Assembly (NCBI GenBank): GCA_910585045.1
Contig: CAJUCD010000002.1
Span: 73,829-137,828 of the forward strand
Length of the DNA stretch: 64,000 nt
Direction of reading: 5' to 3'
Origin: an uncultured Bacilli bacterium
GTDB taxonomy: Bacteria; Bacillota_I; Bacilli_A; RF39; UBA660
The notes under the pieces were generated by a model that did not search any database, was not told the origin of the DNA, and worked only from the letters and a program-made list of their open reading frames with translations. This document shows, piece by piece, positions 22,518-28,469 of the stretch. The position numbers and the translations under genes are program-made. Within the stretch, counting starts at the first letter, position 1; each line of letters starts with the position of its first letter.

Positions 22518-23804
22518 ATGTTAGAATATAAACTAATTTTATTTAAAAAGGGGCGAATAAAATTGGAAAAAAGAGTGTTTTTAAAACGGGTAGAGGATAT
22601 TTTAAATACTAAAGATTGGTCGGGCATTGCTAAGAGTTATATTAAGGGAGCAGCTAAATTTGTCTATGAAAATTATGCACCACATGATTATTATAAAGTT
22701 TCAATTTTTAATTATTTAGAAAGATTTCTCTATATTTTAAATAATATGAAGGACTTTAAAGTTGTAGAGTTTGCAGATTTTGGTTTAGAAGTTGAATATA
22801 TGGATTATTTTAGGTCGCAAGTTAGGGTAGCAAATGGAAATGATGGTACTTTAGATATTGTAGATGGTCAATTTGTACCTGCGGTTAGAGGTCGTTATAG
22901 TTGTCCATTGTCTGGTTATGCTGACTTAAATAAAAGAAACGTTTATTTATTAAGTGAAAGTGATAAAGTTTTTCGTCATTTAAATATTGTACATGAACTT
23001 ACACATTTAGATGATGGTAAATATTCATTTCCAGTTGGTAAATTACCTTTTGGAGCAGATTTTAGAAAAATGTGTATAGAAGGTAAAGCAGTTTTTCATG
23101 AAACTTTATTTGGCACTCAAATAGAAGATGGAGCATGGTGTGATAATATTAATGATGAAAAACACCATTTACAAATATATTCTGATTCGTGTTCTTACCC
23201 TTTATATGAAATTTTGTATAAATTATTGATTTTGATTTTCGGGGTAGAGACAATTGAGAAAATGTCTAAAAATACAGATGCAGGACTTAATATGATTGAA
23301 ACTTTAAAAGCAATGTATCCAAATCTTCCAGTTTATGAAATATATGCTCACTTTGTTTATATTTTAGCTATGTTTGATGATAACTCTAAATCATTTATTA
23401 AAAATACTATTAATATTTTTAGAAAATCACAGTATAGTTTATTTTCGCAAGAACAAGCTAATTATAAAAATTATATCCGTGCTTTGAGAGAGTTACATAG
23501 AAATATTATGCAAGCTCAAGATAAAGCTTCATATAATGAATTTAAGAAAATATTTATATTTGCTTTAAAAGAAACTCAAGCATCAAAAGAGAAAATGCTA
23601 GCATTAAAGGATGAGAGTTTAACTTATGCTTTGATGGATATATGTGTTAAAAATGGTGATTTGATAGCATCTTTTGACTTTTTAATAAATGTTGCTAATA
23701 TGGTTATCTTTAGTAGCAAAACAGTTGATGAATCTATGGCTAAAGAGTTAGGTAATATAAGAAATACTTTAATTGAAGCAAGAGAATTAGGTAATATTAG
23801 ATAA
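22518..23804 (+). CDS. Hypothetical 428-aa protein with an HExxH motif (possible zinc-metallopeptidase-like fold).
   Basis: NIVHELTHLDDG, with a downstream Glu candidate in FHETLFG. No clear RBS, so the start is uncertain. Confidence 0.4.
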   Translation: MLEYKLILFKKGRIKLEKRVFLKRVEDILNTKDWSGIAKSYIKGAAKFVYENYAPHDYYKVSIFNYLERFLYILNNMKDFKVVEFADFGLEVEYMDYFRSQVRVANGNDGTLDIVDGQFVPAVRGRYSCPLSGYADLNKRNVYLLSESDKVFRHLNIVHELTHLDDGKYSFPVGKLPFGADFRKMCIEGKAVFHETLFGTQIEDGAWCDNINDEKHHLQIYSDSCSYPLYEILYKLLILIFGVETIEKMSKNTDAGLNMIETLKAMYPNLPVYEIYAHFVYILAMFDDNSKSFIKNTINIFRKSQYSLFSQEQANYKNYIRALRELHRNIMQAQDKASYNEFKKIFIFALKETQASKEKMLALKDESLTYALMDICVKNGDLIASFDFLINVANMVIFSSKTVDESMAKELGNIRNTLIEARELGNIR

Positions 23805-23852
23805 GAAGTATTAGAGAGCTTCTTTTTTTAATTTAAAAATATTTGTTTTTAT

Positions 23853-23882
23853 TGACTTTTAGCTTCGGGGGGGGGGTATAAT
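23853..23882 (+). promoter_or_regulatory. Near-consensus sigma-A promoter TTGACT-N18-TATAAT. The spacer contains a G10 homopolymer, making it a candidate phase-variable promoter.
   Basis: TTGACT at 23853-23858. G10 at 23867-23876. TATAAT at 23877-23882. Flanking inverted repeat AGCTTC / GAAGCT. Confidence 0.55.
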
Positions 23883-23918
23883 GAAGCTAGTGATTATAAC
23901 AAAAGGAGTAAGAGGTTT

Positions 23919-26042
23919 ATGGTGTTTAAGTGTAAAATGTGTGGTGGTGATATTACCCCTAAACAAGGAACAAATATAGGAATATGTAGTTATTGTAAAA
24001 GTACCATGACTTTGCCTAATTTAGAAGATGAGAAAATAGTAAATTTATATAATAGAGCTAATGATTTAAGACTAGCTAATAGGTTTGATGAAGCAAAAGA
24101 AATATATGAAAAGATTTTATTAATTAATAATGCTGAAATAGAAGCTCATTGGGGAATATTACTTTGTAGATACGGGATTGAGTATGTAGATGATCCTAAT
24201 ACTAATAAGAAAATTCCAACTTGTCATAGAACTATTGATAGTTCAATTTTGGTAGATGCAGATTTTAAATTTATAAAAAAGGAAGCTTATGGTGAAGTTT
24301 TAGAATTATATAAAAATGAAGCTAAAGTTATTGATGAAATTCAAAATGGTATATTATCTATTTCAAAAAAGGAAAAGCCTTATGATGTATTTATATGTTA
24401 TAAAGAGACTGATGAGGCAGGAGAAAGAACTAAAGATTCAGTTATAGCAGAAGATATTTATGATAAATTAGTTCTACAAGGCTTAAAAGTATTTTTTGCA
24501 AGAATTACTTTAGAAAGTAAATTAGGAATGGAATATGAACCTTATATTTATTCAGCTTTAAAGTCAGCTAAAGTAATGTTAGTGGTTGGAACAAAGGAAG
24601 AACATTTTAATGCTGTTTGGGTAAAAAATGAATGGTTAAGATTCTTAGAAATGATGAAAACCAATAAAGAAAAACATTTGATTCCTGTTTATAGTGGTAT
24701 TGATGCTTATAAATTACCAGAAGAATTTGCTATGTTACAAGCTCAAAATATGGATAAAATAGGAGCGATGCAAGATATAGTAAGAGGAATAAAAAAGATT
24801 TTAGATGAATATAAAGATGATTCAGAATATGAGGAAATAAATAAAGAAACTATTGAAAAAGTGGCGGCGGCTATAGGTGATGCCAGAAGTTTAGGAAATG
24901 GTTCTTATGAAGTAACTGTAGTAAAAGAGAGACTTCCTGTATGGTATTACTTGTTAATTAGTGCGACATTTGTTTTTGGTTTTTTCTTTTCATTAATGCT
25001 ATTAAGTAATGAAGTATTTTATCATTTGGTAACAAAAGAAAGCTATAGTGTTATCGACTTAATAAGATATGTTACTGGTAATGGGTTACTAATATTGTGG
25101 GGAATGTTTGTTTTGTTCATGATAATAAGTTTACTTTGTTTTATTATAAATCGTAAAACATTTAAGTTGAGAAAATACTTTTTAATAACAGGGCTATTAA
25201 TTTTTTTAGAGTTTAATATGTTACCTATAAAATATGGTTATATGCCATTTAGATTTCCTTTTGTTTTAAATATTAGAGATTTAGATGGAGTCTTCTTTTT
25301 CTATTTTATATTTGTAACTTTGTTTTTATTATTGTGGTTTATAAAGCCAACTTGGCAAATTAATACTAGTGGAAAAACTTTGATGAATGAAGAAGAAAAA
25401 AATAAACAATTGGCTAAAAATCAAGAAATTAAAAATAATTTTAGTAGAAAAGATGATTCTAAAGTAAATAAAAAATTTCTACTAGGGATATTTTTAACAT
25501 TAGTTGTTTTATTCTTTATTAATATTTATACATCACTAGCAGCTTGTAAAGGTACTAATAAGGATGATACTATAGATCAAGTAGAAATAATGGTAAGCAA
25601 AGAAATGACTAAGTTACCAGGCAGTAAATATTATAATGGACAGGTAAAAAAAGGGGAATTTTATAATTTAATAAATGTAGTTGTTAAAGATAATAAGATG
25701 TATCTAGGAATCAAAAATAAGGCGGGAATTTTTGGTTATATAAATAGAGCTAGTGTGAATATTAATTGTGTTTCTGATAAATGTTTGCAAATGTTTAAAC
25801 AAACAAATGATAGAAATCCAGAAGTAAAACAGCTAATAGTAACAACTGAATATATAAATATTCGTGCTAGTTCATATGCATCTAGTGTCAACTTGGGAAG
25901 GGTTTATAAAGATGAAATATATACTATTTTAGATAAAGCTGGTTATCAAGAAATTTGGTATAAAATAAAAACATCAAATGGAATAGAAGGATGGATTGCA
26001 GGCAGTTTTAATAAAGAAAAAATGGTAGATATTTTAGATTAG
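23919..26042 (+). CDS. Transmembrane TIR-domain protein. It has an N-terminal zinc ribbon, a TPR-like region, a TIR domain, 5 TM helices and C-terminal extracellular SH3b domain(s).
   Basis: CKMCGG...CSYCKS; KPYDVFICYKETD...KVFFARI...VMLVVGT...WVKNEWLRFLE (TIR pattern); the SH3b segment YINIRASS...GWIAGSF. Confidence 0.7.
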   Translation: MVFKCKMCGGDITPKQGTNIGICSYCKSTMTLPNLEDEKIVNLYNRANDLRLANRFDEAKEIYEKILLINNAEIEAHWGILLCRYGIEYVDDPNTNKKIPTCHRTIDSSILVDADFKFIKKEAYGEVLELYKNEAKVIDEIQNGILSISKKEKPYDVFICYKETDEAGERTKDSVIAEDIYDKLVLQGLKVFFARITLESKLGMEYEPYIYSALKSAKVMLVVGTKEEHFNAVWVKNEWLRFLEMMKTNKEKHLIPVYSGIDAYKLPEEFAMLQAQNMDKIGAMQDIVRGIKKILDEYKDDSEYEEINKETIEKVAAAIGDARSLGNGSYEVTVVKERLPVWYYLLISATFVFGFFFSLMLLSNEVFYHLVTKESYSVIDLIRYVTGNGLLILWGMFVLFMIISLLCFIINRKTFKLRKYFLITGLLIFLEFNMLPIKYGYMPFRFPFVLNIRDLDGVFFFYFIFVTLFLLLWFIKPTWQINTSGKTLMNEEEKNKQLAKNQEIKNNFSRKDDSKVNKKFLLGIFLTLVVLFFINIYTSLAACKGTNKDDTIDQVEIMVSKEMTKLPGSKYYNGQVKKGEFYNLINVVVKDNKMYLGIKNKAGIFGYINRASVNINCVSDKCLQMFKQTNDRNPEVKQLIVTTEYINIRASSYASSVNLGRVYKDEIYTILDKAGYQEIWYKIKTSNGIEGWIAGSFNKEKMVDILD

Positions 26043-26058
26043 AAAAAGAGGTAGAAAA

Positions 26059-27126
26059 ATGGCATTATTTGAAGTAATAAAAAAAGCAAAAGATGATAAA
26101 AATATTGTTTGGCGATATCCGAAACAGAATTTTAATACAGGATCAAAGTTAATTGTTAATGAGTCAGAAGAAGCGCTGTTCTTTTCTTGTGGTGAAGCCT
26201 TAGATTTATTTGGGCCTGGTAGATATACATTAAATACTAATAATATTCCTTTATTAAGAAGATTATTAGATATTCCAACAGGTGGAAAAACTTCTTTTAC
26301 AAGTGAAGTGTATTTTATTGATAAAACTGTTAGGCAAACAAAATGGGGAACATCATCAAAATTAGAGTTTTTGGAACCAATCTATAAATTTCCTATACAA
26401 ATTGGAGCATGTGGAGAAATACGTTTTGAAATTGAAGATTCTCGAAAATTGTTAGTAAAGCTAGTAGGCATTAAACGAAATTTTGATATTAATAATATAG
26501 ATGATTTTTTTGCTAATCAAATACTTGTGAAGGTTAAAGCTTATTTGACGGGAATAATTAAAGAAGAAAAAATAAGTATTTTTGAGATTGATGAAAAATT
26601 AGATAAAATAAGTAGAGAATTAAAAGAATTATTAAAAAATGATTTTCAAGAATTTGGCATTAAAATAGATAATTTCTTTTTAAGTAATATTGCAAAGCCT
26701 GAAGATGATAAACAATATCTAAAATTTAAAGAGTTATACTTTAAAAAAGGAGTTTTAATTGCAGATGTACAATTAGATAAAGAAATATCAGATATTGAAG
26801 CAGAAAAAGAGGCTAGTAGAATAGGAATTACGGCAAAAGGTATAGCTACAAAAAGAAAAACAGAAGGTTATTCTTATCAAGAGGAAAAAAGCTTGGAGAT
26901 TGGTAAGGAAGTGGCTAGAAATGAAGCAATGGGACAATTTACTAATATTGGAGTTGGTCTGGGTGTAATGAGTGGTACTTCAAATGTTTTAGGAAGTGAA
27001 GTTACAAAACAGGTTCAAGGAGCTTTTATGAATTTGAATGAAAAATTTTGTTCTTATTGTGGACAGAAACTTAATAATGAAGCACTATTTTGTTTTAAGT
27101 GTGGAAAGAAGGTAAGTGATGAGTAA
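26059..27126 (+). CDS. SPFH/band-7 domain protein with a C-terminal zinc ribbon (COG4260, virion-core-protein-like family; same family as B. subtilis YdjI).
   Basis: The N-terminus MALFEVIKKAKD...IVWRYP...FGPGRYTLNTNNIPLL is typical of COG4260. C-terminal zinc ribbon CSYCGQKL...CFKCGKK. Confidence 0.65.
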   Translation: MALFEVIKKAKDDKNIVWRYPKQNFNTGSKLIVNESEEALFFSCGEALDLFGPGRYTLNTNNIPLLRRLLDIPTGGKTSFTSEVYFIDKTVRQTKWGTSSKLEFLEPIYKFPIQIGACGEIRFEIEDSRKLLVKLVGIKRNFDINNIDDFFANQILVKVKAYLTGIIKEEKISIFEIDEKLDKISRELKELLKNDFQEFGIKIDNFFLSNIAKPEDDKQYLKFKELYFKKGVLIADVQLDKEISDIEAEKEASRIGITAKGIATKRKTEGYSYQEEKSLEIGKEVARNEAMGQFTNIGVGLGVMSGTSNVLGSEVTKQVQGAFMNLNEKFCSYCGQKLNNEALFCFKCGKKVSDE

Positions 27127-28360
27127 GAGTACTAAGATTATATTGTTAGTTGGGGTGTTGTCTTTTATTGTTTTTTTAGTAGTAGCATATTTTCATTATC
27201 AAGGTAGTTCAGATATAGTATTTTTGACCTCAAAAGATTCTTATGCAGATAATTATGCTAAAAAGCATTTTTTGGATGTTGAATATGTTTCTAATATGGA
27301 AAAGAATAAGTATCAAAGAAAATTAGAAAATTTTGATTATAAAATTGATAAGGGAATTACTATTACAGGTTATAAAGGTAAAAGTTCAAGATTAGTAGTG
27401 CCAGCTGTTATTAGGGGCATAAAAGTTTTAGAAATAGAGGCAGATATATTAAATAATAAAAATATTGAAACATTAGTATTATCTAGTAATATAGAAAAAA
27501 TAGATAAAGAAAAATTTAAGAGTGTTAATATTGAATGTTTTGCTAATTCTTTTTGTTTAGAGTTAAAAGAAACAGATGGCATGAATGTAACAATTTTAGA
27601 TGATTCAGAATTTGTAGATTTTAATAATTATTTAGATGAATATGCTTATGAGTTAAATGATGGCCAAGTAGAAATTATAAGGTATGATGGTCAAGATTCT
27701 TATCCAATAATTCCTAATACTATCAATGGTTATCAAGTTAAAACTATAACTTTTGCGGCTAATAATATTAAAGGTATATATATTCCTGATACAGTAGATT
27801 ATATAGGAAATAACTTTATTATGAAGCATTTAAATAGAACGTATTTAACGGTGGTTTTAGGTAATTTAGGGGCTTTGATAATATTTGTAGTTGTAAATAT
27901 ATTTAATAAGAGTAAAAAATTAGAAGAGATAAGCGCTAATTCAATTATTAGTATTATAAGTATAATATATTTAGGAATTATTTATTATTTTTCTTATAAT
28001 ATAAATATATTTTTAGACTATAAATGGTATATTATAAAGACATTAATCGGAACATTTATTTATATTTTACTCATAGTTTCTCTTTATTTAGGATTAAGTA
28101 ATAGAAAGAAATATACTAGTAGTATTAAATATAAAAAAGAGTTTTTAAATGAAACATTAAATTTGTTAGATGATGTTGATTCAAATGATGAATATAATTT
28201 AAGAGAGTTAATTAGATATTCAGAACCAATATCTACTGACCAAGTAAAAGATATAGAATATAAAATCCTAGAATTAATTACAAATATAAGTAAAGATAAT
28301 GTAGAGGAAATAAAAAAGCTTATTAAGAAAAGAAATAATGTTTTAAAGCAAAATAAATAA
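27116..28360 (+). CDS. Membrane protein with an extracytoplasmic BspA-type leucine-rich repeat region, 3-4 further TM helices and a C-terminal coiled-coil tail.
   Basis: BspA-LRR-like spacing: ITITGYKGKSSRLVVPAVIRGIKVLEIEADIL...IIPNTINGYQVKTITFAANNIKGIYIPDTVDYIGNNFI. Overlaps the SPFH gene by 11 nt. Confidence 0.5.
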   Translation: MMSKSTKIILLVGVLSFIVFLVVAYFHYQGSSDIVFLTSKDSYADNYAKKHFLDVEYVSNMEKNKYQRKLENFDYKIDKGITITGYKGKSSRLVVPAVIRGIKVLEIEADILNNKNIETLVLSSNIEKIDKEKFKSVNIECFANSFCLELKETDGMNVTILDDSEFVDFNNYLDEYAYELNDGQVEIIRYDGQDSYPIIPNTINGYQVKTITFAANNIKGIYIPDTVDYIGNNFIMKHLNRTYLTVVLGNLGALIIFVVVNIFNKSKKLEEISANSIISIISIIYLGIIYYFSYNINIFLDYKWYIIKTLIGTFIYILLIVSLYLGLSNRKKYTSSIKYKKEFLNETLNLLDDVDSNDEYNLRELIRYSEPISTDQVKDIEYKILELITNISKDNVEEIKKLIKKRNNVLKQNK

Positions 28361-28382
28361 GTATCTTAATTGATACTTTTTT
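28359..28382 (+). terminator. Rho-independent terminator ending the TIR/SPFH/LRR transcription unit.
   Basis: Hairpin AAGTATC-TTAATT-GATACTT followed by a T-run. Confidence 0.6.
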
Positions 28383-28409
28383 AAATATTTTAAAATTAGC
28401 AGTTATATA

Positions 28410-28438
28410 TTGACAAGTGCTAAGCATAATATTATAAT
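28410..28438 (+). promoter_or_regulatory. Consensus sigma-A promoter of the hrcA operon (TTGACA-N17-TATAAT).
   Basis: Exact -35 and -10 hexamers with a 17-nt spacer. Confidence 0.7.
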
Positions 28439-28442
28439 GGTA

Positions 28443-28469
28443 TTAGCACTGAAGGTTAGTTAGTGCTAA
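28443..28469 (+). promoter_or_regulatory. CIRCE operator (HrcA binding site).
   Basis: TTAGCACTG-N9-TAGTGCTAA, compared with the consensus TTAGCACTC-N9-GAGTGCTAA. Confidence 0.8.

Follow-up and report, generated by a model that had tools for sequence, protein, structure and literature searches.

Genes B, C and D of the locus described here constitute one transcription unit that encodes a conserved three-part membrane system, and the neighbouring gene A lies outside it. The B-C-D triad, for which no description was found in PADLOC, in PDB sequence searches or in the literature, appears to be a module that occurs across the Firmicutes and is apparently undescribed; the self-contained, envelope-associated, undescribed system envisaged in the original prediction is borne out for three genes, without gene A. 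From its sequence features we tentatively propose, with a little less than even confidence, that B-C-D acts as a membrane-organised TIR NADase surveillance system.

Within the window (the whole 64-kb stretch of DNA that was analysed), ORF analysis identifies genes A to D as co-directional (+) reading frames of 428, 707, 355 and 414/413 residues. The tight packing predicted for them is confirmed, with gaps of 114 bp (A-B) and 16 bp (B-C) and an 8–11 nt overlap between C and D, although the lengths first given for the two gaps (115 and 17) were each one too many. Gene A is followed by a terminator-like hairpin (AAGAAGT...GCTTCTT plus T7; 23803–23829, +; DNA fold −4.7 kcal/mol, z = −1.9), which we infer separates it from the B-C-D unit. 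The unit has its own promoter (23852–23882, +), comprising a −35 element TTGACT (23852–23857), a 19-nt spacer and a −10 element TATAAT (23877–23882), which is missing from the promoter scan output because its spacer is longer than 18 nt. A second terminator-like hairpin (AAGTATC...GATACTT plus a T-run; 28359–28383, +) ends the unit and was missed by a GC-based terminator scan because it is AT-rich; it had been predicted as a strong terminator at 28359–28382, and the hairpin and T-run are real but weak (fold z = −2.4). Directly beyond, as expected, lie a perfect 12/12 consensus hrcA promoter (28410–28438) and a CIRCE operator (TTAGCACTG-N9-TAGTGCTAA, 28443–28469), which serve here as a boundary only (28410–28469, +). 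The base composition of the locus is the same as that of its flanks.

Gene A (22518–23804, +) encodes a 428-residue cytoplasmic protein with an HExxH motif (HELTH, codons 22992–23006) and has no match in Pfam, PADLOC, NCBIfam or PHROG. Its family is small, with just 27 relatives in a set of 1.84 billion representatives; H159, E160, H163 and E188-G189 show little or no variation among them, the HExxH motif being invariant, and the HExxH assignment stands. The original proposal of a four-gene locus, in which a metallopeptidase-like A would act with B, C and D, accords with the co-directional, adjacent position of A and with its presence next to the triad in all contigs from this species, but is already contradicted and is to be regarded as highly improbable: the interval from A to B holds a terminator-like hairpin and a separate promoter, none of the 78 species-level loci related to this one and none of the 7 other B-C-D loci examined in metagenome assemblies has an A homologue, and in a sister species (locus L009) the gene A slot is occupied by sodA and a CdiA_C-like gene. 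Moreover, the 27 representatives of the A family compare with at least 577 species-level hits for B. Gene A, from a rare HExxH family, is a neighbour unrelated to the conserved module.

Gene B (23919–26042, +) encodes a 707-residue, receptor-like membrane TIR protein, in which a Zn ribbon (residues 1–33, nt 23919–24017), a TPR-like helical/beta domain (residues 38–150, nt 24030–24368) and a TIR domain (residues 155–299, nt 24381–24815) are followed by five TM helices (residues 339–543, nt 24933–25547) and two SH3b domains that are predicted to be extracellular (residues 552–626 and 636–707, nt 25572–26039). Pfam matches to TIR_2 (E 7e-10) and SH3_3 (E 4e-8) bear out the TIR and SH3b calls. The AF2 model of B has a pLDDT of 84.7, and the active NADase AbTir in complex with 3AD (AbTir-3AD; 7uxu, TMt 0.69), plant TIRs and SPARTA are among the best Foldseek matches of its TIR domain, for which PDB sequence searches returned no sequence-level match. 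The SH3b tandem resembles endolysin and NlpC/P60 wall-binding domains in Foldseek, and B also matches the wall-binding region of an amidase in PHROG. The W-x3-E motif of the putative catalytic glutamate (E238, 24630–24632) is intact, and W234-V235-x-N237-E238-W239 is invariant in 112 homologues. Conservation is at least 80% over the cytoplasmic 300 residues, versus 30–50% in the TM and ectodomain regions.

Gene C (26059–27126, +) encodes a 355-residue soluble YdjI-type SPFH protein, with a Pfam Band_7_1 domain (residues 17–222, nt 26107–26724; E 5.5e-38, covering profile positions 1–204 of 211), a Gly-rich hydrophobic stretch (residues 292–312, nt 26932–26994) and a C-terminal Zn ribbon (residues 328–352, nt 27040–27114; Pfam Zn_Ribbon_1), in agreement with the earlier SPFH–zinc ribbon call. 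No TM helix is predicted in C, which is 53–66% identical to the C genes that adjoin B homologues in the Bacilli lineage. Gene D (27116–28360, +) encodes a membrane protein of 413 or 414 residues, the ATG at 27119 being better positioned behind the RBS than the GTG at 27116. It consists of TM1 (residues 8–28), a BspA/TpLRR-like ectodomain (residues 31–230, nt 27206–27805), three further TM helices (residues 236–328, nt 27821–28099) and a conserved cytoplasmic tail (residues 330–414, nt 28103–28357) with the motif Y-S-(D/E)-P-x-S ... R-N-x3-K. D had been described as an LRR-TM protein; the TM part holds, but neither D nor its homologues fall into any Pfam family, and so not into a Pfam LRR family, and the LRR part draws on a Foldseek match of the ectodomain (AF2 pLDDT ~90) to TpLRR 6mlx (E 3.7e-4) and on a jackhmmer link to LRR_5 repeats. 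The core of D, four TM helices and the tail (~230 residues), lies beside C and B in 52 of the 78 loci, and the LRR-like ectodomain is a feature of this lineage. A cytoplasmic TIR domain and extracellular SH3b domains in B, together with an LRR-like ectodomain in D, match the predicted topology, and neither C nor D has a recognisable signal-binding or killing domain.

Among the 78 species-level loci, 57 contain C and 52 contain D, and C accompanies B in 35 of the 38 well-flanked loci (≥15 kb) from Bacilli and Clostridia. Cultured strains that are candidate carriers of C-D-B are [Clostridium] aerotolerans DSM 5434, Lacrimispora sp. AGF001, Pseudoflavonifractor capillosus An827 and Ruminococcus sp. 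FC2018. Within the Bacilli lineage, homologues of all three genes are grouped in four or more genomic contexts that are unrelated to one another, and clustering of 852 flanking ORFs of B-C-D loci revealed no fourth recurrent family. Two to four tandem B paralogs are found at 33/78 loci. The N-terminal cassette of B is 54–61% identical between Bacilli and Clostridia, and the C-terminal halves elsewhere consist of TPR, RCC1, LRR_5 or DUF6273 domains, often behind a single TM helix; one or more TM helices follow the TIR domain in 71 of 116 B-type proteins, and the other 45 have none and carry cytosolic TPR-type C-termini. B-type proteins are built from interchangeable C-terminal sensor domains joined to a cytoplasmic cassette that stays constant (Zn ribbon, TPR-like domain, TIR). 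The sister species has the triad at the equivalent position, immediately before the hrcA promoter, and all same-species contigs that were read contain it. The view that none of the four genes belongs to conserved synteny consequently holds only in part; nor is the triad a strain-variable island, being vertically stable within the genus. Fixation and synteny of this kind fit a resident function better than a mobile defence island.

PADLOC, suggested earlier as a check, found no known defence system at the locus and gave one weak match, to the TIR domain only (PDC-S66). In a crude neighbourhood test, 150 immediately flanking proteins and 59 housekeeping proteins from the window had about equal rates of PADLOC families (mad3, 4.7% versus 3.4%; AriA, 4.0% versus 3.4%), so there is no detectable defence-island association; strong matches in the flanks are few (AbiLi, E-84; PDC-S02, E-127). 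SIR2_2/AbiH-like genes embedded in 5 B-C-D loci, an RHH regulator directly upstream in 8, and recombinases or integrases near ~13 lend the loci the flavour of a conflict system, in favour of the surveillance reading. Only one relative was found among 2.9 million viral contigs. Since gene A lies outside, the triad is vertically stable, PADLOC recognises no system and the flanks are not enriched, the defence and NADase mechanism is one that we infer.

In the proposed surveillance mechanism, D would anchor an SPFH oligomer of C at the membrane, and this assembly would hold or organise the TIR cassettes of a single B receptor or of several. The variable domains would detect a perturbation, which in this genome might be cell-wall damage or contact of phage or another agent with the wall; TIR clustering would change in response and NAD+ cleavage would be switched on. 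NAD+ depletion or a signal molecule could then lead to growth arrest or an abortive-infection-like outcome. B has the W-x3-E motif in common with the oligomerisation-activated TIR NADases (AbTir, SPARTA TIR-APAZ, TIR-STING, SARM1), and AbTir-3AD is the closest match to its predicted TIR fold, which resembles SPARTA too, but an SPFH/membrane complex would take the place of a nucleic acid or cyclic nucleotide as its activator. Like Thoeris (ThsB TIR sensors with a ThsA-type effector), B-C-D has TIR proteins with a conserved catalytic Glu, often several TIR paralogs beside a single copy of the partner genes, and, in a minority of loci, an added SIR2-like gene. In contrast to Thoeris, its partners, an SPFH and a 4TM protein, lack SLOG, Macro and any other known signal-binding domain, its TIR proteins are large, mostly membrane-bound and equipped with their own sensor domains, and its loci show no defence-island enrichment in the crude flank test. 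PADLOC gave no Thoeris match for B-C-D, and SPFH/Band_7 is absent from the text and text-format supplementary files of a 2025 Sorek-lab survey of new Thoeris types (bioRxiv 10.64898/2025.12.03.692087). By analogy, the coupling of TIR to variable repeats that may bind ligands (LRR, TPR, beta-propeller) is reminiscent of animal Toll-like receptors and plant TIR-NLRs, and many B members likewise have one TM helix with repeats outside and TIR inside; B is, however, bacterial and inverted (TIR N-terminal), lacks NB-ARC/NACHT, carries a Zn-ribbon/TPR cassette and has SPFH partners, and its ligand sensing is putative.

The lack of defence-gene enrichment in the crude test of 150 flanking proteins makes a non-immune role in envelope stress or membrane maintenance a serious rival, if one that we consider rather unlikely; much of the evidence cited for surveillance is compatible with it too. 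In B. subtilis, the SPFH protein YdjI is soluble, carries a zinc finger at its C-terminus and requires for its membrane recruitment the membrane proteins YdjG, which has an N-terminal Zn ribbon, and YdjH (PMC8581546; PMC9239133). Similarly, C has the Band_7_1 and C-terminal Zn finger architecture of YdjI (PMC8581546), and with two membrane proteins recruiting it as an SPFH adaptor, B-C-D could form a complex that monitors or repairs the envelope; the TIR would serve as an oligomerisation/adaptor domain or would put a brake on metabolism while the wall is under stress. By analogy, B would correspond to YdjG as a membrane protein starting with a Zn ribbon, and D, as a polytopic protein, to YdjH. 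The SH3b wall-binding domains of B, the polysaccharide deacetylases and Mur ligases/MraY that adjoin the module in several contexts, and its fixation and synteny within the genus agree with such a role, and cell-wall integrity is a link shared with PspA-YdjG-YdjH-YdjI. However, B-C-D has no pspA and a different gene order, its likeness to YdjG and YdjH is one of architecture, and B differs from YdjG in its TIR domain, SH3b ectodomains and variable paralog arrays. Neither PspA nor any other fourth conserved partner occurs in the 78 loci, the TIR catalytic-Glu motif is invariant, and tandem paralog arrays with swapped sensors, embedded SIR2/AbiH-like genes and a hypermutable promoter would be unusual for a housekeeping stress module.

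It is still less probable that the variable ectodomains (SH3b, LRR_5/BspA-like, RCC1, DUF6273) are phase-variable adhesins or surface antigens of gut bacteria, which the cytoplasmic cassette, the SPFH protein and the 4TM protein merely anchor or cluster. Firmicute surface proteins typically carry ectodomains of these kinds, variation in poly-G promoters is a classic trait of surface-antigen genes, and sample names indicate host-associated organisms. Against surface display, the 45 B-type proteins without a TM helix have cytosolic C-termini, the best-conserved part is the cytoplasmic TIR cassette with its enzyme-type invariant residues, and signal peptides and sortase motifs are absent, with the N-terminus cytoplasmic.

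The B-C-D promoter contains a poly-G tract (G10, 23867–23876, +) in its spacer, which is the sole G/C run of at least 7 in the window, with G9 or longer found nowhere else in the 64 kb and reached in 0 of 100 shuffles. The suggestion that this promoter is phase-variable gains from 12 same-species assemblies, in which tract length truly differs between samples (G9 in four, G10 in seven, G11 in one; homopolymer lengths from short-read assemblies can be erroneous) and is the only indel over 11–22 kb at 99.8–99.99% identity. Three contigs terminate at the tract, the sister species is polymorphic (G10/G11) at the same promoter position, and an Oscillospiraceae MAG has an independent G9 in a perfect 17-nt spacer upstream of a C-D-B operon. 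Homopolymeric-tract promoter phase variation is exemplified by Mycoplasma vlp and the Neisseria/Haemophilus contingency loci; the present locus shares a G tract between −35 and −10 and its length polymorphism between samples, and differs in that switching is putative. None of the observed spacers, 18–20 nt in this species and 24–25 nt in the sister species, has the optimal 17 nt, so any ON/OFF logic of the tract is likewise putative. Slipped-strand changes in the hypermutable tract could vary, across a population, the expression of a potentially costly system. Poly-G promoter variation appears to be common in gut metagenomes, where more than 120 TTGACAAAAT-N-G9 sites were found, mostly followed by a −10-like hexamer.

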